Source: an uncultured bacterium (lineage in GTDB: Bacteria; Patescibacteriota; Minisyncoccia; UBA6257; 2-01-FULL-56-20). From it: a stretch of DNA of 64,000 bases. The notes under the pieces were generated by a model. It was not told where the DNA came from and did no database searches. It saw only the letters and a program-made list of their open reading frames with translations. Below, in pieces: positions 6,410 through 31,452 of this stretch. A program made the translations under genes and the position numbers. Each line of letters starts with the position of its first letter. Positions within the stretch are counted from its first letter, which is position 1. The stretch is from assembly GCA_963844965.1 (NCBI GenBank), contig CAWJQC010000007.1, positions 192,001 to 256,000 on the forward strand. Direction: 5' to 3'.

Positions 6410-7168
6410 ATGATGGCTACAAATATCAACCCCGTTCTTGAGGTGCGTGAACTGCGGAGATTGTACGGCGAAACGGTTGCCGTGAACGATATTTCGTTTG
6501 CGGTGTACCCGAACGAGATTGTCGGTCTTCTCGGACCGAATGGCGCGGGAAAAACGACGACTATCAATATGATTCTCGGAGTTTTGGAACCCACCGGGGG
6601 TTCCATCCGGATAAAAGGAAAAGATATCGCAAAGAAGCACAGCGAGGTGCTCTCGCGTACCAATTTCGCGGCGGTCTACGCGCAAGTTCCCGGCAATCTG
6701 ACGGTCTTTCAGAATCTCCATATATTCGGGCTGATGTACGGCGTGCCGGATTTGCGCAACCGCATCGAGGAATGCCTCGGAAATTTTGACCTTAAGGATT
6801 TCAGGAATACCAAATGCGGCGTGCTTTCCTCGGGCGAGCAAACGAGGGTGGGTTTGGCGAAGGCGATGCTCAATAATCCCGACCTTCTTCTCCTTGACGA
6901 ACCGACGGCTTCGCTTGATCCCTCGAGCGCCCAGATCGTCCGCGCGAAAATTAAAGATTATGCCGCGAGCGGCGCCGGGGGAATTTTGTGGACATCCCAC
7001 AATATGCATGAAGTAGCGGACGTCTGCGACCGCGTTCTTTTTCTCTCGCACGGCAAGATTATTCTTGAAGGCGATCCCAAGATGCTTCCCGGCGAATATG
7101 GCAAAAAAGACCTTGAAGAACTTTTTATCGCGATTGCCCGCGAACCGCTCGCTTTGGAATCCGTATAA
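6410..7168 (+). CDS. ABC transporter ATP-binding protein (ABC-2 exporter type)
   Basis: Walker A GPNGAGKTT, signature LSSGEQTRV, Walker B LLLLDEPTASLD. Confidence 0.9.
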   Translation: MMATNINPVLEVRELRRLYGETVAVNDISFAVYPNEIVGLLGPNGAGKTTTINMILGVLEPTGGSIRIKGKDIAKKHSEVLSRTNFAAVYAQVPGNLTVFQNLHIFGLMYGVPDLRNRIEECLGNFDLKDFRNTKCGVLSSGEQTRVGLAKAMLNNPDLLLLDEPTASLDPSSAQIVRAKIKDYAASGAGGILWTSHNMHEVADVCDRVLFLSHGKIILEGDPKMLPGEYGKKDLEELFIAIAREPLALESV

Positions 7169-7177
7169 TAATTTTAC

Positions 7178-7981
7178 ATGAGCATAAAACGCATTTACGC
7201 AATATTCCTCCGCCAAATTTATCTCATTCGCGGCAACGGCACGCGCTTCATTCAGATATTTATTTGGATTACCGTAGACATCACGCTGTGGGGCTTCATC
7301 AGTAAATACCTTACCGGAATAGCCGGCTCCGGGTTCAGTTTTGTGCCCATCTTGTTGGGTGCGGTCCTCCTGTGGGATTTTCTGATTCAAGTTATGCAAG
7401 GCATCACCATGTCATTCTTTGAAGATGTGTGGTCCCGCAATTTTTTGAACATTTTTGCGTCACCGCTGAGGATATCCGAGTATATTGCCGGCCTCGTGCT
7501 TACGGGAATTATGAGAAGCATACTGGCCCTCGTTGTCATGCTTATGTTTGCGACTCTCGTCTTCGGGCTTTCAATTTTCATCTACGGCGTTTCTCTTGCG
7601 TTATTCCTCCTCATCCTCTTTCTTTTCGGCATCTCTTTGGGAATTTTCGGCATCAGCATTGTGCTCCGGCTTGGACCATCGGCCGAGTGGTTCGTCTGGC
7701 CTATTCCTGCCCTGCTTTCCCCGTTTGTGGGAGTGTTTTACCCCTTGACGACGCTGCCTCAGTGGATGCAATACGTCGGGCAGCTTCTCCCGCCTTCATA
7801 TGTTTTTGCGGGCATCCGCAGCATCATTAACGGCGGAGGGTTTTCTCTTCCCACGCTCATCTGGGGAATTATTCTTTCCATATTTTATATTATTCTTGCG
7901 TATAGTGTTTTTACGGCGATTTACCGAAAAGCGATGCGTACCGGTCTTATCGCTCGCTACAGCGCGGAGAATGTAAGTTGA
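7178..7981 (+). CDS. ABC-2 family transporter permease
   Basis: Six or more hydrophobic segments; immediately downstream of the ATPase. Confidence 0.75.
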   Translation: MSIKRIYAIFLRQIYLIRGNGTRFIQIFIWITVDITLWGFISKYLTGIAGSGFSFVPILLGAVLLWDFLIQVMQGITMSFFEDVWSRNFLNIFASPLRISEYIAGLVLTGIMRSILALVVMLMFATLVFGLSIFIYGVSLALFLLILFLFGISLGIFGISIVLRLGPSAEWFVWPIPALLSPFVGVFYPLTTLPQWMQYVGQLLPPSYVFAGIRSIINGGGFSLPTLIWGIILSIFYIILAYSVFTAIYRKAMRTGLIARYSAENVS

Positions 7982-8008
7982 CGCTATCAAAATGCAATTT
8001 CTCTAGCT

Positions 8009-8038
8009 CCGTTTTCCTTTCCCGAAAAATGGGGTTAA
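8009..8038 (+). promoter_or_regulatory. conserved 30-nt upstream element (copy 2), upstream of enolase
   Basis: Exact repeat of 6360-6389. Confidence 0.4.
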
Positions 8039-8047
8039 TATTATTGT

Positions 8048-9226
8048 ATGACATACAAAATGATGTTAACCGCTCGTCAGATTCTTGATTCGCGCGGGGA
8101 ACGGACGATAGAAGTTCAACTGGTAACTGGTAACCGGAAATTGGTAACTGGTTCTGTGCCGCAGGGGAAGAGCAAGGGTTCTTTTGAGGCGCATTACGTT
8201 CCGCCGGAGGTTGCCGTGCGGAATGTGGAGAAAATTATCGCGCCGAAGCTTAAAAATTTTGACGTTACGCGCCAGCGCGACATTGATTCATTTTTGATAA
8301 GGTTGGACGGCACGCCGATGAAATCCCGCCTCGGGGCGAACGCCATTTTGGGCGTTTCCATTGCTTGCGTGAAAGCCGGAGCGGCGGTTAAAAACGTGCC
8401 GCTTTGGAAATATATTGGGAAATTGCTTGGTGGCGTTCCGGCAAAAAAATCTGCAGGCCCGCGGCCATACGTCAACATGATCAACGGCGGCATGCACGCC
8501 GGAAATAATCTGCGTTTCCAGGAATATCTTGTGATTCCCAAGGCGAAAACTTTTTCGGAAGCCGTGTGGATCGCGACCGAATTGTACCAATCGCTAAAAA
8601 TTTATTTGGAAAAAACAAAAGGCAGAAGCGCGGCTAATTTGGGCGATGAAGGTGGCTTCGCGCCGGATTTCAAGGATGCGCTTGAACCCTTCGCCATATT
8701 GGAGAAAGTCGCGAAAAGCGCCGGCCTGCGCGGCAAAATTGATTTCGGACTGGATGCCGCGGCGACAGATGCCGGTTTGAACGTGAAAAAATTTTCGGAA
8801 ACCTACGCGGTGATGGCGAAGAAATTTAATTTGTTTTATTTGGAAGACCCGCTTCCCGAAAATGATTTTAAAGGATTCGCCGCTTTGCGGCAAGAGTTGC
8901 CGCGGCATCTTCTCGTCGCCGGCGATGACCTTACGGTGACAAATCTGGAACGGATGGAACTTGCGCACGATTCGGAGAGCGTGAACGCGATGATAGTGAA
9001 ACCGAATCAGATAGGCACGGTAACGGAGGCGATTGACGCCGTGCGCAAAGCGAAAGAATGGGGCTGGGCGGTTGTCGTTTCTCATAGGAGTGGTGAAACG
9101 AACGACGATTTCATCGCCGACTTCGCAGTAGGCGTTCGCGCCGACGGTTTCAAGCTCGGCGCTCCCGCCCGCGGCGAACGGATCGCGAAATATAACAGGT
9201 TGCTGGAGATCGAACGGGAATTCTGA
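8048..9226 (+). CDS. eno: enolase (phosphopyruvate hydratase)
   Basis: N-terminal ILDSRGERTIEV motif; full-length similarity pattern to enolases. Confidence 0.85.
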   Translation: MTYKMMLTARQILDSRGERTIEVQLVTGNRKLVTGSVPQGKSKGSFEAHYVPPEVAVRNVEKIIAPKLKNFDVTRQRDIDSFLIRLDGTPMKSRLGANAILGVSIACVKAGAAVKNVPLWKYIGKLLGGVPAKKSAGPRPYVNMINGGMHAGNNLRFQEYLVIPKAKTFSEAVWIATELYQSLKIYLEKTKGRSAANLGDEGGFAPDFKDALEPFAILEKVAKSAGLRGKIDFGLDAAATDAGLNVKKFSETYAVMAKKFNLFYLEDPLPENDFKGFAALRQELPRHLLVAGDDLTVTNLERMELAHDSESVNAMIVKPNQIGTVTEAIDAVRKAKEWGWAVVVSHRSGETNDDFIADFAVGVRADGFKLGAPARGERIAKYNRLLEIEREF

Positions 9227-23847: not shown

Positions 23848-24609
23848 TTAGTTCGTGGCGTACTTCAAAATTAGCGATAATGCCTCATACCAGCTCGCCG
23901 CTGCTTTGACTGGATATTTGCGGCCCAATTCGGCCAGCATGATACCAGCGATGCAACCGTCGGTGACGACTATTCCTCCGGAATCTCCTGGGACAGCCTC
24001 CACGTCACAGAGCGTAGTTCGCAATTCTCTGCCGTGGTCGTTCGTTTCGTGCGTTTCTATCGTGAACCCGCCCCTCACAACGATTGAGCCGTTCCTTCTC
24101 GTCAATAAGACCACCGGTTTCTTGTGGGACTTGGAAAAAGTGTCCGTTTGCATGAAGCGGTAAAGTTTCGCGTCCGCCAGACCTTCAAGTTCGGCTTTGG
24201 CAAGAGCAATATCCGCCTTTTCATCCTTGATGCAGACGCGCGATATGCGGGCGACCCTTCCCGAGTGCATCCTTATCTTCTCGTTCGTGATGTCTTTTGC
24301 GACGCAATGTGCGGCAGTTATGAAATAACCGTTCTCGGTTATGAGAAATCCATTACCGCGGTGAGTTCCGTTTTCACAGAGCAGTTCCACTACGCCGTTT
24401 TCCACCAGTTGCTGGGCTTCGCCGACCGAGAGAGCTTCGCCGTAATAAAAGTTTTGCGTGAATTTCAACAGCGCGGCTCTGTCTTCGTCGCTCTTTTTCT
24501 CGGAACGAAGCTTTCTTGCGAGCAAGGCAAGCCAATTTTTCAAGATTGCCACCTCCTGTATCCGCCGTGTTCTGTTGCGAAGTATAATGTCGTTACAATC
24601 AACTTGCAA
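23848..24609 (-). CDS. trypsin-like (S1 family) serine protease
   Basis: Catalytic His in TAAHC, Asp, and Ser in GDSGG. Confidence 0.8.
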   Translation of the reverse strand: MQVDCNDIILRNRTRRIQEVAILKNWLALLARKLRSEKKSDEDRAALLKFTQNFYYGEALSVGEAQQLVENGVVELLCENGTHRGNGFLITENGYFITAAHCVAKDITNEKIRMHSGRVARISRVCIKDEKADIALAKAELEGLADAKLYRFMQTDTFSKSHKKPVVLLTRRNGSIVVRGGFTIETHETNDHGRELRTTLCDVEAVPGDSGGIVVTDGCIAGIMLAELGRKYPVKAAASWYEALSLILKYATN

Positions 24610-24654
24610 GCGTATATGCGCCAGCGATTATTTGACCCGCTCCGCCGCAAGCCC

Positions 24655-25200
24655 CGGCCTTTAGGCCGAGGATAAGGCGACCCCGTAGCCCCGAGCGAAG
24701 CGAGGGGCGGAGGGCTTATTTGCCTGTTCCCACTGGTTTCTGCCGGTGCGATAATGAAGATAATGCCCTCTGGATTCTGGCCAAGCAACCACAGCTATAC
24801 GCGATGTTTGTACCACGTTGTTTTCTGCCCAAAGTACCGCCGCTCGATACTGCGAGGGGACATGGTCGGGCGACTCAAGACATTGTTCTTTCAAGCCGCC
24901 AAGATGAATAAATGGTTCATCCATGAAGCGCAGATAATGCCCGACCATGTCCATCTATTGCTTCAAATTCCTGCTACCCTGACGGTTGCCAAAGCGGTGT
25001 TTTATCTCAAAGGCGGTACGTCCAGGGCTGTCAGAAAAGAATTTCCCGAGCTGGAAGAATTCCTCTGGGGAGACAGCTTGTGGCAGGATGGTTACTTTGC
25101 CGAAACCGTTGGCCGTCAAAACGAAAAAGCGATGAGAGAATATATCAGAAACCAGTGGGAACAGGAGCCGAACACAAGCCGCGGGCTTTAGCCCGCGGTG
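24655..25200 (+). mobile_element. IS200/IS605-family element (tnpA only) bounded by perfect 20-bp inverted repeats and GC-rich hairpins
   Basis: cctgttcccactggtttctg at 24723-24742 and its exact reverse complement at 25146-25165; hairpins at 24688-24708 and 25176-25199. Confidence 0.7.
24754..25191 (+). CDS. tnpA: IS200/IS605 Y1 (HUH) transposase TnpA / RAYT-like
   Basis: YHVVFCPKYRR N-terminus, HUH motif HVHLLL, catalytic Tyr region; 145 aa. Confidence 0.85.
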   Translation: MKIMPSGFWPSNHSYTRCLYHVVFCPKYRRSILRGDMVGRLKTLFFQAAKMNKWFIHEAQIMPDHVHLLLQIPATLTVAKAVFYLKGGTSRAVRKEFPELEEFLWGDSLWQDGYFAETVGRQNEKAMREYIRNQWEQEPNTSRGL

Positions 25201-25270
25201 ATTGACAATTGTAAAAGAGGCATGTTACAAGGTAGGAAGTTCGCCCACACCGTTCAGTGGGAGGTACGAA

Positions 25271-25573
25271 ATGACCATAACCGAAGAAGATTTCATGGTT
25301 GGAGACACCGTGGAGTGGAAAGGAGATGAATCCCTGCCAGAGGAAGATGACAGGGAAAATATCAAGCTCCTCAAGAAGCTTTTCGGCCCCGGACCATTTT
25401 CTGTAAGAAGAACTGCGCCGATAGAGAACGATGAAGCAATTCATACCAGGCATCACCAGTTTTTGGAATTAAGTGATGCTACCGGAGAAACGGTGAACCG
25501 CCTGGATTTGGGCATAGGCGGTAAGCTTTCAGGTTTTTGGTTCGTGAAGGTTTCTTCGGCCAAGCCAAACTAA
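25271..25573 (+). CDS. hypothetical small acidic protein
   Basis: ORF with Shine-Dalgarno-like context; no domain recognised. Confidence 0.3.
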   Translation: MTITEEDFMVGDTVEWKGDESLPEEDDRENIKLLKKLFGPGPFSVRRTAPIENDEAIHTRHHQFLELSDATGETVNRLDLGIGGKLSGFWFVKVSSAKPN

Positions 25574-26323: not shown

Positions 26324-27112
26324 ATGAATGAAGTCGCCAAACTTATTGAACTTTTAAACAATAAAGCGAAGCTCACCGCTATGCTCGCTCCGTCGTTTCC
26401 GGTTATGTATGAGTATCCGCAAATCATCGGCAGGCTGAGGCAGTTGGGTTTTTCGCATGTTGTTGAAGTCGCGGCGGGCGCTAAAAGAACAAACGAGGCG
26501 GTCGTGAAGTTGCTGCGGGATGACCCTAAGTCGCGATTCATCACGAGTCCATGTCCGAGTTTTGTGCGTCTCGTGAGGACCAAACATCCGCAGCTTCTGC
26601 CGTACCTTGCGTTCAAGGCCGATTCGCCGATGGTCGCGACCGCGCGTATCGTGAAAGAAAAATTTCCCGACTGCCAGCCGGTTTTTATCGGTCCCTGCAT
26701 CGCCAAGAAACTTGAGGCCTCGGAGGATTATCCGGAACTCAATATTTTAGTCATAACCTACAGAGAGCTTGAGGTGGTTTTCAATACGTTCCATGTGGGG
26801 AATGCGGTTGCTCGGGTAGATGGTGGGTTTGACATCGCGGAACAGGGGACGCGCATTTATCCGACTGACGGCGGGCTCACGGAATCGAGCGGTGCGAGGA
26901 GTATTCTCGAGGACGAGGAAATAAGAATCGTTTCCGGATGGAAGAATTGCGAAGCGGCTCTCGCAGAATTTGAAAAAAATCCAAAAATTCGGCTGCTTGA
27001 TATTTTATTCTGCGAAGGCGGGTGCATCATGGGGCCGGGAATAGTAAGCGCCTTGCCGCTTGAGGAGCGCAAAAAGAAAATTATGGAGTTTTCGGCGAGA
27101 AGAGATTCATGA
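26324..27112 (+). CDS. [FeFe]-hydrogenase-like protein (H-cluster domain only; TSPCP variant of motif L1)
   Basis: Motifs TSPCPSF (L1-like), GPCIAKKLE (L2), CEGGCIMGPG (L3); no N-terminal ferredoxin domains. Confidence 0.6.
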   Translation: MNEVAKLIELLNNKAKLTAMLAPSFPVMYEYPQIIGRLRQLGFSHVVEVAAGAKRTNEAVVKLLRDDPKSRFITSPCPSFVRLVRTKHPQLLPYLAFKADSPMVATARIVKEKFPDCQPVFIGPCIAKKLEASEDYPELNILVITYRELEVVFNTFHVGNAVARVDGGFDIAEQGTRIYPTDGGLTESSGARSILEDEEIRIVSGWKNCEAALAEFEKNPKIRLLDILFCEGGCIMGPGIVSALPLEERKKKIMEFSARRDS

Positions 27113-27152
27113 TTGGAAAAATTTGCGGAAAAGCGGGAGAATGGGGATATTA

Positions 27153-27869
27153 ATGAAAATAAAAAAACCAATCAAGATTACACCCCAACGTTCCTCGACA
27201 GAACTGGACTACCACGCCTTACTCGCAAAATACCCCTGGATGGCTAAGCGAGGACAAAATTGTATCGTAAGCCCAGATAGTGATGGTCTGCTTTGCGGTC
27301 TCCTTATGTCGTACTATCTAGGATGGCGGATTTGCGGATTTTATGACGGGAAAGTTCTCGTTCTCGAAGATGGTTGCAATCCTCAAGAAAGTGTTTTTCT
27401 CGACATGGAAATATTCCGGCCGAATATCCGCAGCGTTGGACAACATATGGTCATGTATGACAAGGCGGACCTACCACCAAACTGGCAAAATTTCGACAAT
27501 TGTATTGCTGCAAATAATCTAAGGAATTACGACTTTAAAAATGATTTCAAGCTCAAATATCCGCTTGGAACAGTTCATCTCCTGCTTGCTATTTTAGGAC
27601 AGAGCAACACCATCCCTATCACCAAAAATGGAGTGAGCCCGTTATTATATACCGACGGAACTTTTAAGAATCAATTTAACTATCCAGAAAATTGCTTGAG
27701 TTGGTTGGATTTTTTGGGAGCAAATCAGGCAAATAGTCCACTTCAAAAAATCTTTCTAGACAGACATTATTCAACTTATGAATTAATGGTTGAGCTGAAA
27801 GATTTATTTTTGAAATTCAATGTCATTGGAGGAGGAAAACGTGGCGGTGATAAAATCAAGAATCTCTGA
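27153..27869 (+). CDS. hypothetical protein (low-GC island); speculative nuclease
   Basis: AT-rich ORF convergent with the methyltransferase gene; SPDSDG...LEDG...DME acidic motifs but no firm PD-(D/E)xK assignment. Confidence 0.4.
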   Translation: MKIKKPIKITPQRSSTELDYHALLAKYPWMAKRGQNCIVSPDSDGLLCGLLMSYYLGWRICGFYDGKVLVLEDGCNPQESVFLDMEIFRPNIRSVGQHMVMYDKADLPPNWQNFDNCIAANNLRNYDFKNDFKLKYPLGTVHLLLAILGQSNTIPITKNGVSPLLYTDGTFKNQFNYPENCLSWLDFLGANQANSPLQKIFLDRHYSTYELMVELKDLFLKFNVIGGGKRGGDKIKNL

Positions 27870-28155
27870 TTCGCGAGGAAATATTGTTAACATCGACTCT
27901 CGTACCAACCTCCTCAAGACAGAAACTAGGACTCAAGCAGAAAATCTTTTGGAAATGTTGGCAGACAAAACTAAGTGGACATTTACGTCCGCTCATTGGC
28001 CGTGGGGTCCATATCAAACCACTCGATTTAGAAAAGGCAGCGTAAAACCTGGGAAGGCTCGTTACAACGCGCTTCTTGCTCAAAATCCCATATCTCTCGC
28101 GATTATCAGCCGAGAGAGTATTGAATATACGATAGACGAAAACGGAATGTTCTAG
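27820..28155 (+). CDS. hypothetical protein
   Basis: ORF overlapping the previous gene's end; no recognisable domain. Confidence 0.3.
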   Translation: MSLEEENVAVIKSRISDSRGNIVNIDSRTNLLKTETRTQAENLLEMLADKTKWTFTSAHWPWGPYQTTRFRKGSVKPGKARYNALLAQNPISLAIISRESIEYTIDENGMF

Positions 28156-29609
28156 AGCAATCTGTTTTGTGACGCCAAAACGCATTCTTCCTTCATGCGT
28201 TTTTCTGCAATCGCACAGTACTCGGGCGCAATATCAATTCCGATATACTTGTGCCCCAAATTCTTTGCCGCAACGGTAGTAGTGCCACTTCCAACAAAAG
28301 GATCTAAGACGACCCCATTTTTGGGACAGAAGCATTGTATGAAATCGTACGGCAATTGATTTGGAAATGTTGCCGGATGTTGATGTTTTAGTCGGCTGCC
28401 GTCACCGGCCGTGAGATATTCCCAAATCGTCCCCCGGCACTTCATGGGATTTATCTTGATGGGTCGGGTGTTTATCCGTGTGCCATTTGTCAGGCGAGTG
28501 CCTCCGCCTGTCAATGTTTTCCCGCCCCACTTAGACGGTATTTTGAGTGGTTCTTTATTGAAATGCTGTGGCCTTTCTCCTTTTAGGAAAATTGGCATAT
28601 ATTCGTGGTCGACACGGAAGCGTTTATTCCACCAAGCGCCCTCCGCGCCGTACTTTCTATAGATGGTGGTCTCAAAAAGTTTAAATCCTACATTATCACA
28701 CCAATCTATTATTGTTTTGAAAGAGGTCAGCGATTTCGCGAAATTTTTTGTTTGATCTTGGATGACCATTACGGCTACTCCGCCGTCTTTCAGCGCTCTG
28801 TATATTTCTCTTCCTGTCTCGTGGAGATTAAATTTCGGCCTTCCTTTGTAGTCGCGTACGGCATCGTACGGAGGCGAAGTGACTACAATATCCACCGAAT
28901 TGGGGGGAAACTCTTTCATTATATCTACCGCATCGCCGCAAATGATTTTATTTAGCGGCAATTCTTCATATTTTTTAACTTCTTTGTGCTCGGGAAGTTG
29001 TATTGTTGACGCTCCTTCTTCCCGGATAACATCAAGCACTATTCCTTGGATTGAAACATCTCGTCCGTTTCGGAAGATAAGCGGCTCCATATTTTTATTG
29101 GCCGGTTGCAAACGAATATGTCCTCGTTCTTTATAAAATTTCTTAAGTGTTGCTTCGTGATTATCAATAAGCGCCACCACTTTTTGTCCGTTCTCGGCGA
29201 TTTTCTGCTGTTTTACCAAAACGATATCTCCATCGTTGATATTCTCATCAACCATGCTATTACCGACAACCTTTAGTGCGTAAATCTGGCCAGAACCGGG
29301 TAATCTACTTTGAGGAACAGCGATGGTCTCTCTGTCTTCTATGGCCTCAATCGGTTGGCCTGCGGCTATGGTTCCCAGCAGAGAAATACTTATCATCTTT
29401 TCTGATTTTGAAATTTCTATCCCTCGCGGCTGACTCGTCGCCTTTGTCAATAATCCTTTCTCTTTCAACGATTCAATATGCTGGTGAATAGTTGAGACCG
29501 AACTTAACCGGAAATGCTTTTTAATTTCCTCAAGCGATGGAGCGAACCCCCTTTTCTTGGTAAAACTTTTTATAAAATCCAAAATTTGTTTTTGGCGTTT
29601 GGTTAGCAT
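28152..29609 (-). CDS. LexA repressor (HTH + S24 autopeptidase) fused to beta-class N4-cytosine/N6-adenine DNA methyltransferase
   Basis: N-terminal 200 aa match LexA end to end: KRQKQILDFIK HTH, AAG cleavage site, Ser nucleophile GNSM (Asn in place of canonical Asp), catalytic Lys in IVLVKQQ. C-terminal half has MTase motif IV SPPY, motif I DPFVGSGTT and target-recognition region. Confidence 0.8.
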   Translation of the reverse strand: MLTKRQKQILDFIKSFTKKRGFAPSLEEIKKHFRLSSVSTIHQHIESLKEKGLLTKATSQPRGIEISKSEKMISISLLGTIAAGQPIEAIEDRETIAVPQSRLPGSGQIYALKVVGNSMVDENINDGDIVLVKQQKIAENGQKVVALIDNHEATLKKFYKERGHIRLQPANKNMEPLIFRNGRDVSIQGIVLDVIREEGASTIQLPEHKEVKKYEELPLNKIICGDAVDIMKEFPPNSVDIVVTSPPYDAVRDYKGRPKFNLHETGREIYRALKDGGVAVMVIQDQTKNFAKSLTSFKTIIDWCDNVGFKLFETTIYRKYGAEGAWWNKRFRVDHEYMPIFLKGERPQHFNKEPLKIPSKWGGKTLTGGGTRLTNGTRINTRPIKINPMKCRGTIWEYLTAGDGSRLKHQHPATFPNQLPYDFIQCFCPKNGVVLDPFVGSGTTTVAAKNLGHKYIGIDIAPEYCAIAEKRMKEECVLASQNRLL

Positions 29610-29749
29610 AGTTTGATTATACCAGCATCCCCAATCTTTTGCCTGTGGATAACTTTCGGTTTATTTTCGGTATGGTTTATGTTATAATGTAATCAACAAC
29701 AAAAGGCGTAAGGTACCAAGAAAATAGAGCAAAAATTTAGTTTTTAAAC

Positions 29750-30226
29750 ATGTGGCAATTTACCGAACAATATAAAAGGGTTGAAAGGTGGCACGCTAGA
29801 CTAAAAGCAATCTGTCGGAAAGTTCCAAAAGATATTGGAGACGATGAAGACATTCAAGGCAGAGATGACATTTTGGCGTTTTTTCAAAATTGTTACCATC
29901 TGAAAGATTGGGTTGAGAATGATGGTTCATGCCAAATTGCCGACAAGAAAAATGTAGTCGAAAATTTCATTAAAAATTCAGAATTTTTAAAGGTGTGCAA
30001 AGATGTTTGCAATGCGTCTAAGCACTTAGAGGTGGGACATCAAAGAATAGATCCGAGCGAGATTGTTAATTATGAGTTTTTTATATCAGGACCAAGTTTT
30101 TCTAACGGTGTTGTTACGAAACGCAATTTTAAAATTAGAGAACAGTATGAGGCGTTAGATCTCGCAGATAAATGTATGGGTGAGTGGCACGACTTTTTTA
30201 ATAAACAAGGAATGTCTTGGTCATGA
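29750..30226 (+). CDS. hypothetical protein (island cargo)
   Basis: 158-aa ORF preceded by an extended -10 TGTTATAAT; no domain recognised. Confidence 0.4.
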   Translation: MWQFTEQYKRVERWHARLKAICRKVPKDIGDDEDIQGRDDILAFFQNCYHLKDWVENDGSCQIADKKNVVENFIKNSEFLKVCKDVCNASKHLEVGHQRIDPSEIVNYEFFISGPSFSNGVVTKRNFKIREQYEALDLADKCMGEWHDFFNKQGMSWS

Positions 30227-30331
30227 TTGCCTACCCCATAATCCGAAAATCCCACGAATCCTGCGAAAAAGCGAAAGAATTATTAGAAGAAGCCAAACGA
30301 AAGGTCGAGGAAATGATAGAAAAGAAATAAA

Positions 30332-30628
30332 ATGCCCAAATTTAGTAGGCTCAAAAAATTTACGAAAACGAACATTGAGAAAATACCTAAAAATAAATCA
30401 ATAGTATATAAGCTTACAAATACTGCTGGCAAAAACTTATATACGGGTATTGCTGGACGTGGCAGAACCGTTAAGCGCCTGCTCGAACACAAAAAACTTA
30501 AGAAGGACGAGATAAAGGGGGCGTCTCGTTTTAAGATCGCTCAAGTATCTACCAAAAAGCGAGCGGCTCAGATTGAAAAGCAAATTATAAAAAGGGAAAA
30601 ACCAGAGTTTAACATCCAGCATAAGTAA
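30332..30628 (+). CDS. GIY-YIG nuclease domain small protein
   Basis: IVYKLTN...LYTGIAG...RLLEH pattern (GIY-YIG core with Arg and Glu). Confidence 0.55.
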   Translation: MPKFSRLKKFTKTNIEKIPKNKSIVYKLTNTAGKNLYTGIAGRGRTVKRLLEHKKLKKDEIKGASRFKIAQVSTKKRAAQIEKQIIKREKPEFNIQHK

Positions 30629-30648
30629 ATTATGCTATAATTTATATT

Positions 30649-31452
30649 ATGAAAACCATTAAAGAATTACTGGAACTTTCGGGGAAAACGGCGATCGTAA
30701 CCGGCGGGGCGGCCGGCATCGGTTTTGGCGTGAGTTCGCGCCTCGCGGAAGCGGGTGCGAACGTCCTTATCGCGGATATGAACGCGGAGAACGCGGAAAA
30801 GGCGAAAAAAGAATTGTTGAGCGGCGGCTGGAAGGCGGAGGCCGTGCATGCAGACGTTTCAAACGAGGATGACGTTCGGAAAATGGTGGAGAAAGCGGTT
30901 GACGCTTTCGGCGGCGTGGACATTCTCGTGAACAACGCCGGAATTTATCCGAGCATCCCCGTGATGAATATGTCGGCGGCGGATTTTGAAAAAGTTATCG
31001 CCGTTAATCTTAAGGGCGTTTTCCTTTGCACGAAAAAAGCGGCGGAGCGGATGATATCGCAGGGGCGCGGCGGGAAAATTATTAACATCACTTCCATTGA
31101 CGCTCTGCATCCTTCGTCCGTCGGCCTTGCCCACTACGATGCTTCCAAACATGGCGTCTGGGGTTTCACGAAGAACGTGGCTTTAGAGCTCGCACCGCAC
31201 AATATCTGGGTGAATGCCGTGGCTCCGGGCGGCATAGCGACTCCGGGAGTTGCCGATTCGCAGAAAACGGCTCCGACCGCGGTCGGAGTGGATATGAAGA
31301 AAGTGCTTGAAGGATTTCTCGCCAAAATCCCGATGAAGCGGATGGGGGAGCCGGACGATATCGGCAAGGTTGTGCTTTTTCTCGCCTCGGAAATGTCTTC
31401 TTATATGACGGGCAGCCAGATAGTGGTGGACGGCGGATATTTGCTGATGTAA
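30649..31452 (+). CDS. SDR-family oxidoreductase (FabG-like)
   Basis: TGGAAGIGFG cofactor motif and catalytic YDASK. Confidence 0.85.
   Translation: MKTIKELLELSGKTAIVTGGAAGIGFGVSSRLAEAGANVLIADMNAENAEKAKKELLSGGWKAEAVHADVSNEDDVRKMVEKAVDAFGGVDILVNNAGIYPSIPVMNMSAADFEKVIAVNLKGVFLCTKKAAERMISQGRGGKIINITSIDALHPSSVGLAHYDASKHGVWGFTKNVALELAPHNIWVNAVAPGGIATPGVADSQKTAPTAVGVDMKKVLEGFLAKIPMKRMGEPDDIGKVVLFLASEMSSYMTGSQIVVDGGYLLM

Follow-up and report, generated by a model that had tools for sequence, protein, structure and literature searches.

A LexA-methyltransferase fusion and a frameshifted, putatively DHH-like partner gene as a candidate restriction-modification module on a Patescibacteriota genomic island

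Type II restriction-modification (R-M) systems with a controller (C) protein, such as PvuII, BamHI, AhdI and Esp1396I, consist of separate modification (M) and restriction (R) genes that are often convergent, spread horizontally, are low in GC, have their short symmetric word avoided and undergo R decay while M is kept. In another established mode of R-M control, DNA methyltransferases (MTases) with an N-terminal helix-turn-helix (HTH) repress their own expression at operators that overlap their promoters (PMC3874152). The repressor LexA, for its part, has repeatedly evolved direct-repeat motifs in several clades, Patescibacteria and Balneolaeota among them (PMC7739468, where a study of Patescibacteria is cited). 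Here we analyse a 64,000-nucleotide stretch of an uncultured Patescibacteriota genome (positions 192,001 to 256,000 of contig CAWJQC010000007.1, assembly GCA_963844965.1; hereafter the window), in which the gene for a LexA-MTase fusion lies convergent with a broken partner gene inside a low-GC island. To our knowledge, regulation in Patescibacteria is almost unstudied, and we know of no described R-M regulator that has a RecA or DNA-damage input.

We consider it likely that the island is an acquired Type II R-M-like module, composed of the LexA-MTase and a DHH-like nuclease partner with the candidate specificity AGSCT (AGCCT/AGGCT), together with two cargo genes, and that the nuclease is broken in this genome. 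Such a module would depart from known R-M systems in two ways: its putative nuclease is DHH-like and goes unseen by the restriction endonuclease (REase) models searched, and its regulator is a complete, cleavable LexA. The island and its module contain the following features, in window coordinates.

27113-30648, no strand: low-GC insertion (the island), flanked by the Fe-hydrogenase-C-like gene (26324-27112) on the left and by the SDR gene (30649-31452) on the right
27155-28155, plus strand: MTase partner gene, candidate restriction endonuclease, pseudogene here; N-terminal part 27155-27869 in one frame, C-terminal part 27853-28155 in another
27858-27863, plus strand: one-base insertion site AAGAAT, extra A at about 27861-27862, leading to a TGA stop at 27867-27869
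28152-29609, minus strand: intact LexA-MTase fusion, 485 aa
29421-29609, minus strand: LexA winged HTH, residues 1-63 (Pfam LexA_DNA_bind, 2e-17)
29037-29381, minus strand: S24 autopeptidase, residues 77-191 (Peptidase_S24, 2e-28), with Ala83-Gly84 at 29358-29363, Ser118 and Lys156
28200-28895, minus strand: beta-class N6_N4 MTase, residues 239-470 (N6_N4_Mtase, 4e-37), with motif IV SPPY and motif I FVGSG

The 3.5-kb segment is an insertion in this genome and accessory in the lineage, since its flanking genes are joined directly in five relatives. These relatives were retrieved by scanning metagenome contigs with the hydrogenase-like protein of the window (loci L092, L093, L094, L095 and L100; L-numbers label loci). 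In each of them the hydrogenase-like stop is followed, after 30-36 bp, by the SDR start; identity to the window is 76-80% for the hydrogenase-like protein and 83-88% for the SDR protein, and an ECF-transporter-like gene is found upstream, as in the window. None of the four island genes was found in the flanks, of up to 10 kb, of the five island-free loci. Composition deviates as well. The GC content of 27113-30648 is 0.405, the minimum among all 3.5-kb windows of the 64 kb (mean 0.501, standard deviation (sd) 0.021; about -4.4 sd), and sliding-window GC falls to 0.35-0.46 at about 27250-30750 versus about 0.50 elsewhere in the window. GC at third codon positions (GC3) is 0.33-0.44 in the island open reading frames (ORFs) versus 0.57 in the hydrogenase-like gene and 0.65 in the SDR gene. 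A first-pass annotation of the letters alone had described a visibly AT-rich stretch and proposed to look for it in related genomes; its reading of the composition and its placement of the ORFs both hold, and the island genes are neither syntenically conserved in the five relatives nor normal in GC and GC3. We saw no integrase, transposase or target-site duplication within the island or at its junctions. Horizontal acquisition of an island built around an R-M-like module and two small cargo genes is a supported view.

Two overlapping ORFs of 239 and 111 aa had been described as convergent with the MTase. Position and convergence are as described, but the two are not separate genes: the alignments show them to be halves of one gene of about 324 aa that is split by a single inserted A. 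Homologues match in two frames with 78-81% identity (residues 2-227 at 27183-27860, residues 225-324 at 27853-28152), and DNA alignment against L002, L004 and L005 places one extra base in the window only. A convergent gene of 324-331 aa stands beside the LexA-MTase in every fetched context of its close homologues. The stop codons of partner and MTase overlap by 4 bp in the window, as they do, among L002-L006, in the four contexts with both genes complete; the fifth context, L001, breaks off within the partner at the contig end. The public record holds a truncated 242-aa product (P0173) from the same contig. With the partner gene split by a one-base insertion, we read it as a pseudogene here, and restriction in this genome is probably inactive; of the two module genes only the MTase is intact in the window, the insertion at about 27861 dividing the other.

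We regard it as unlikely that the frameshift is not biological and that the system is fully active, be it through an assembly or consensus error or through a bypass by +1 ribosomal frameshifting at CUC-UGA (27864-27869). Such an explanation gains from the fact that this is a single-base difference in a contig of a metagenome-assembled genome (MAG), with a stop just two codons past the insertion, and from the normal length that the protein would regain by a +1 shift at CUC UGA (..DKIKNL|DSRGN.. vs ..DKIKISDSRGN..). However, the insertion lies outside any long homopolymer, no Shine-Dalgarno-like stimulator was found at prfB-type distance, CUC is unable to re-pair in the +1 frame, and independent partner truncations in five other genomes point to decay as a common fate. 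Nothing supports a ribosomal shift that restores the partner frame, and an assembly error is a minor alternative.

Related modules were collected as 80 loci from a scan of one genome per species. The full LexA-MTase architecture is present in 40 of them, the LexA HTH joined to the MTase without S24 in 6 (confirmed for L049), and the MTase alone in 34; the last group includes loci from Cloacimonadota, Elusimicrobiota, Bacteroidota, Proteobacteria, Kazan, Berkelbacteria and several archaea (Pacearchaeota, Woesearchaeota, Altarchaeum). In 77 of the 80 loci the partner is a direct neighbour of the MTase, in most cases tail-to-tail and occasionally co-directional; the neighbourhood comparison suggested at first pass recovers the pair across many phyla and in archaea. 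Upstream of the partner, 22 loci have an XRE/HTH_3 gene of about 79 aa whose end reaches or overlaps the partner ATG (e.g., L002 10428-10667, HTH_3 1e-5), the place where R-M controller proteins are classically encoded. The window copy differs from C-protein systems in having no C gene, the partner start abutting the hydrogenase-like gene, and its activity and specificity are predicted. One protein (P0308) is a single chain of 623 aa in which N6_N4_Mtase and partner are fused, and an IMG/VR contig carries a 34%-identical partner with a convergent N6_N4_Mtase gene, followed by a Mutator-family transposase. Mean GC across the loci is 0.367 for the module versus 0.417 for the flanks. The MTase is intact but the partner truncated or split in L014, L030, L070, L080 and L082, as in the window. 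Taken together, linkage, fusion, a C-like gene, low GC and partner decay make up the pattern characteristic of Type II R-M. The first-pass annotation had proposed an R-M or abortive-infection island from the company of an MTase, uncharacterised neighbours and a nuclease domain; an acquired, R-M-like MTase-partner module is what remains of this, whereas the gene with the nuclease domain (GIY-YIG) falls outside the module and the partner is broken here.

Two of the decayed copies deserve separate mention. In L082 (Altarchaeum, 6855-9035) some 1.2 kb of extra DNA breaks up the partner gene, and in L070 (Cloacimonadota, 6887-7869) the partner gene is split into two high-scoring segment pairs; both look like further independent inactivations.

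Word avoidance was assessed on the 80 loci pooled (about 0.8 Mb) against a maximal-order Markov expectation. AGSCT is the most under-represented of the 512 strand-collapsed 5-mers, with an observed-to-expected ratio (O/E) of 0.28, and AGWCT is second (0.50). In the window the AGSCT ratio is 0.34, with 22 sites versus 87 +/- 10 in dinucleotide-preserving shuffles. Controls gave 0.95 (E. coli), 0.96 (two viral contigs) and 0.83 (the distant hydrogenase-gene relatives L098-L099), and the relatives without the island at this locus gave 0.43. Among the 77 loci with enough expected sites, which span phyla and both domains, the O/E stays under 1 in every case and is below 0.5 in 67. AGSCT is a candidate recognition site because it is the most avoided 5-mer in the module loci and is avoided in the window; this word, or perhaps AGNCT, is the likely recognition sequence, and its avoidance argues that the module may exert restriction pressure. 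Neither AGSCT nor AGNCT turned up in the searchable literature. Since the island-free relatives also avoid AGSCT, avoidance in the host predates or is independent of this insertion, and the host lineage may have been exposed to an AGSCT specificity independently of this recent-looking event. A second word, TCGA, is strongly avoided in the 64-kb window (132 observed vs 538 expected, O/E 0.25), with ratios of 0.50 in island-free relatives and only 0.80, a mild avoidance, in the module loci; the pattern points to a distinct restriction pressure, specific to the host, on a TaqI-like site.

The LexA-MTase noticed at first pass is confirmed as a fusion of LexA (HTH plus S24) with an N6_N4_Mtase. As in LexA proper, residues 1-197 clear the threshold of the lexA equivalog (TIGR00498 in NCBIfam, 194.5 bits vs a cutoff of 110.95), and Ala83 and Gly84 of the scissile bond as well as Ser118 and Lys156 of the catalytic dyad do not vary among 25 fusions. 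Unlike LexA, it is joined to a 280-residue DNA methyltransferase, it sits on a mobile two-gene module that close relatives do not have at this locus, and within the window its box was not seen in front of any SOS regulon member. VVTSPPYD and LDPFVGSGTT are invariant in 25 homologues, and the AdoMet-binding and catalytic motifs of the MTase are thus present. The best of its closest solved chains is 2zie, a putative modification methylase; others include the N4-cytosine MTases 8s9n, 8s9m and 1boo (M.PvuII), a beta-class SPPY enzyme like the one described here. From the SPPY motif and these N4-cytosine relatives, the MTase would protect by N4-cytosine methylation (m4C). The fusion has more than 5000 matches, the top 120 being fusions of about 484 aa that are 70-82% identical and come from Parcubacteria/Paceibacterota lineages. 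Source records name it 'transcriptional repressor LexA', and thousands of candidate phyla radiation (CPR) entries of that name are LexA-MTase fusions on a mobile module, which matters for SOS-regulon reconstruction in these lineages. No description of LexA-methyltransferase fusions or of DHH restriction enzymes was found in the literature that was searched, and the fusion may have been mentioned elsewhere before.

Three control elements lie in the divergent intergenic region between the fusion gene and the 158-aa cargo ORF.

29616-29624, minus strand: extended -10 TGGTATAAT, 6 nt upstream of the LexA-MTase ATG, read from the sequence
29644-29670, plus strand: predicted operator, pointing to the 158-aa ORF; DnaA-box-like TGTGGATAA (29644-29652) and direct repeat TTTCGG-N5-TTTCGG (29654-29670, 11-bp period)
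29680-29688, plus strand: extended -10 TGTTATAAT, downstream of the operator and facing the 158-aa ORF, read from the sequence

The element at 29644-29670 is the sole perfect copy of either operator part in the 64 kb. Its composite form, TGTGGATAA(C) followed by two directly repeated half-sites with an 11-bp period and usually lying inside the promoter spacer, recurs upstream of the gene in 38 of 40 LexA-MTase and 6 of 6 HTH-MTase loci versus 5 of 29 MTase-only loci (box at one mismatch). The half-sites vary with the recognition helix: STAHFH(V/I)SKL goes with TTTCGAT or TTTCTAT, ST(I/V)H(Q/E)H with TTTCGG, and SPST(A/T)HEH with GCTCGGG. Such covariation is good comparative evidence that the fusion HTH binds the repeats, as predicted from sequence. 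The operator mostly overlaps the MTase promoter, and in a few loci it is inverted upstream of it. In L021, L036, L038, L039 and L053 the same layout of operator and then TATAAT drives the LexA-MTase or HTH-MTase gene itself, while in the window, and also in L018, L020 and L032, the operator is turned around with respect to the fusion gene; the window copy lies about 20-55 bp upstream of the fusion -10. The first-pass annotation had an extended -10 driving the 158-aa ORF; TGTTATAAT indeed faces that ORF, but it lies downstream of an operator that belongs to the LexA-MTase's own promoter in most related loci. The composite element further includes a TATAAT box 6-7 nt upstream of the ATG, a conserved feature of most LexA-MTase loci, which suggests that the LexA-MTase mRNA is probably leaderless. 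A generic sigma-70 scan misses the LexA-MTase -10, which has no -35; sigma-70 and terminator scans were uninformative.

This arrangement resembles that of SsoII/Ecl18kI/EcoRII/ScrFI-type MTases (PMC3874152), in which a DNA-binding domain precedes the MTase and the operator, here a predicted one, overlaps the MTase promoter; an intermediate, HTH-only form without S24 is found in Nomura-, Colwell-, Gribaldo- and Uhrbacteria loci. In contrast to these enzymes, the fusion carries a full LexA, with a winged HTH and an S24 self-cleaving dimerisation domain that has all catalytic residues, its operator is a direct repeat with an 11-bp period, and it adds a potential RecA/DNA-damage input. Short fusions of about 345 aa (L047-L049, L051, L053, L060, L078) keep the LexA winged HTH without S24, and could be an intermediate or a derived state insensitive to RecA.

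Further observations were made on these elements. L046 (520-560 and 4992-6299) combines a stand-alone lexA, with the exact window operator TTTCGGTTTATTTTCGG in its promoter, and a LexA-MTase fusion whose upstream region lacks TTTCGGTTTATTTTCGG; therefore, fusion and canonical LexA can coexist. In L087 (Azambacteria MAG, JAUSDV010000024.1) the promoter of a stand-alone lexA carries a TTATCCACA box and the palindromic CCCGACT-N4-AGTCGGG. The perfect DnaA box TGTGGATAA, the reverse complement of TTATCCACA, is kept beside the LexA repeats in most LexA-MTase loci whatever the HTH sequence, with two copies in L022 and L043. We rejected it as a sign of an origin or of control by DnaA: the window shows no enrichment (12 vs 9.6 expected at one mismatch), and the box tracks HTH-bearing versions only and is therefore treated as part of the operator/promoter. 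An extended -10 of the type TGnTAnAAT just 6-7 nt before the ATG is seen at both the SDR gene (30626-30651) and the LexA-MTase gene (29610-29625), and again in the L092-L095 intergenic regions and most LexA-MTase loci. These organisms appear to make frequent use of leaderless transcripts.

The same data bear on a housekeeping explanation, in which the fusion would be a genuine SOS repressor joined to an orphan regulatory MTase with a CcrM-like epigenetic role, and the partner a RecJ-type SOS repair exonuclease. The lexA-equivalog score and the names in the source records would fit it. So would the promoter of the stand-alone lexA of L046, where TTTCGGTTTATTTTCGG is identical to window 29654-29670 and through which the fusion could bind the host LexA regulon, and the best structural matches of the partner, which are RecJ, Cdc45 and NrnA. 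We nevertheless find this explanation improbable. The pair is missing from five close relatives at the locus and has a foreign composition; in many phyla and archaea it has no LexA domain, it is often accompanied by a C-protein-like gene, and it stands beside a transposase on a viral contig. Moreover, strong AGSCT avoidance tracks the module, and the partner decays repeatedly while the MTase stays intact.

In the R-M explanation the partner would be the nuclease. It has 620 matches in 90% clusters (541 representatives at 50% identity), all unannotated; the first-pass suggestion that the cognate endonuclease may be one of the orphans thus leads to the right pair of ORFs, the 239/111-aa pair convergent with the MTase, but to a gene that is no orphan. 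The invariant residues in its alignment are SPDSDG after the first strand (D33, D35), FLDME (D75, E77), SVGQH (H89) and YTDG (D159), followed by an invariant Gly-rich GGxRGGDK segment (D224, K225), at positions that appear typical of a metal-dependent phosphoesterase. Read at the sequence level, and with no spatial clustering implied, DHH motifs I-IV (DxD, D, DHH, D) would correspond to DSDG, D75, H89 (as GQH, not DHH) and D159. Like DHH/DHHA1 phosphoesterases (RecJ, archaeal RecJ2/GAN/Cdc45, NrnA, PggH, GdpP), the partner has an Asp-x-Asp-Gly after the first strand and further invariant Asp/His at strand ends, and its GGxRGGD recalls the GGGH of DHHA1. Unlike them, it has GQH in place of the DHH triad and gives no Pfam match at E<=10, DHH and DHHA1 included, no Foldseek match in the PDB at E<=0.001 and no significant hhalign result for its profile against E. 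coli RecJ (probability 0.3%). Sequence searches of the PDB with one sequence and with a 36-sequence profile returned noise only, and a regular-expression scan of all fetched loci for canonical DHH proteins found none. With moderate confidence we assign a DHH-like fold, and from this fold and the conserved acidic/His residues we propose that the partner is a restriction endonuclease, whose C-terminal domain of about 95 residues (230-324) could serve DNA recognition. The PD-(D/E)xK, HNH and GIY-YIG families proposed for searches at first pass do not cover it: unlike the REases of C-protein systems, the putative R protein matches no known REase family and appears DHH-like, not PD-(D/E)xK, HNH, GIY-YIG, PLD or half-pipe. 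If the partner is a nuclease, this would be a new catalytic fold among the few used by restriction enzymes, maybe a new 5-bp reagent specificity, and about 540 clusters (50% identity) now listed as 'hypothetical protein' could get a name.

The lack of a match to any REase model would also suit a defence or addiction module without a sequence-specific endonuclease, BREX/DISARM-like and not classical Type II, with the partner as an (oligo)nucleotide phosphodiesterase or an exonuclease on unmethylated ends, but we give this little credence, since a system of only two genes, convergent and overlapping, with a common C-protein gene, an M-partner fusion and an avoided short quasi-palindromic word is typical of Type II R-M, and a C-terminal domain is available for DNA recognition.

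Under the R-M explanation, the partner would cleave unmethylated AGSCT and the MTase would protect AGSCT by m4C. In Patescibacteria, the MTase would have acquired a complete LexA at its N-terminus, whose winged helix would bind the 11-bp-period repeat operator overlapping the promoter and autorepress the modification gene, as in SsoII/EcoRII-type MTases; autoregulation through a box in its own promoter, as predicted here, is also a property of LexA, and the stand-alone lexA of L046 has the identical box. RecA filaments on damaged DNA, including damage by self-restriction when methylation lags, would then trigger self-cleavage of the fusion, a step that we infer from the intact Ala-Gly site and Ser/Lys dyad. 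Once the DNA-binding domain is cut off, MTase expression would rise, giving the host a damage-sensing safety loop. In this genome only the LexA-MTase would remain functional, through methylation and through LexA-type repression, including that of the 158-aa gene.

Several points weigh against this explanation. Searches of Pfam, NCBIfam and PADLOC place the partner in none of the known restriction-enzyme families. The loci were gathered by MTase similarity, which places the reverse decay, with the partner kept and the MTase lost, outside the count. AGSCT is avoided also by relatives that lack the island here, and the controls include no module-free genomes of the same phylum. Finally, the rule that leads from SPPY to m4C is a correlation and not a proof, and SOS-triggered cleavage of the fusion is pure inference.

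More tentatively, and with somewhat less than even confidence, we put forward a joint reading in which the partner represents a new DHH/RecJ-fold class of Type II REase with the specificity AGSCT, the fusion is a damage-sensing controller, and mobile R-M systems may plug into or hijack the host SOS regulon. The possible hijack is suggested by the prediction that the fusion and stand-alone Patescibacteria LexA share one direct-repeat box. If true, a RecA/DNA-damage input would for the first time be built into an R-M regulator; the LexA-MTase would offer a testable answer to how R-M systems avoid host killing during establishment or lapses of methylation and would link mobile defence elements to the SOS network in Patescibacteria.

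The remaining two island genes lie beyond the operator.

29750-30226, plus strand: 158-aa cargo ORF, function unassigned, helical bundle, probably under the LexA-type operator
30332-30628, plus strand: 98-aa minimal GIY-YIG ORF, cargo (Pfam GIY-YIG 26.1 bits vs cutoff 22.6)

Both are rare cargo outside the conserved module. The island had been said to hold only lineage-orphan genes, and this description fits just these two: the 158-aa ORF has three homologues, and for the GIY-YIG ORF, which is not in the protein collection, no homologue was found. The 158-aa ORF is probably controlled by the fusion protein, as suggested by the window operator that faces it. Neither it nor the partner halves matched anything in Pfam, PHROG, PADLOC or NCBIfam, and, judged by the four-helix fold and the Rx4-6H motif, it does not come out as a HEPN protein. 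A 156-aa homologue is encoded in the Azambacteria locus L087 (433-5817), where the stand-alone lexA (218 aa) is immediately followed by an N6_Mtase/Eco57I-type gene, then DUF3800, the homologue and HsdS; from this operon context the 158-aa family is R-M-associated, and LexA there stands beside a different R-M type. As for the GIY-YIG ORF, which had been counted as the nuclease of an R-M island, the domain itself is confirmed, PHROG endonuclease families match at 2e-5, and a Tyr/Tyr/Arg/Glu/Asn pattern is readable (IVY..YTG..R..E..N), but the gene is not part of the module and is missing from all 80+ related module loci. We rejected it as the cognate nuclease, the ORF being too small, without homologues and unlinked to the MTase elsewhere.

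Outside the island, a second variable patch lies about 2 kb to its left (23848-25573). It holds an IS200/IS605-type Y1 transposase (24754-25191, Y1_Tnp 9e-39), a 123-aa ORF (25202-25573) and a 253-aa ORF (23848-24609), none of which has a counterpart within 10 kb of the hydrogenase-like gene in L093 and L095. The hydrogenase-like protein itself (26324-27112) is only 262 aa long and corresponds to no more than the C-terminal portion of the large subunit of [FeFe]-hydrogenase (Fe_hyd_lg_C; positions 210-460 of TIGR04105). The relatives conserve it, at 76-80%, along with its SDR and ECF-like neighbours.

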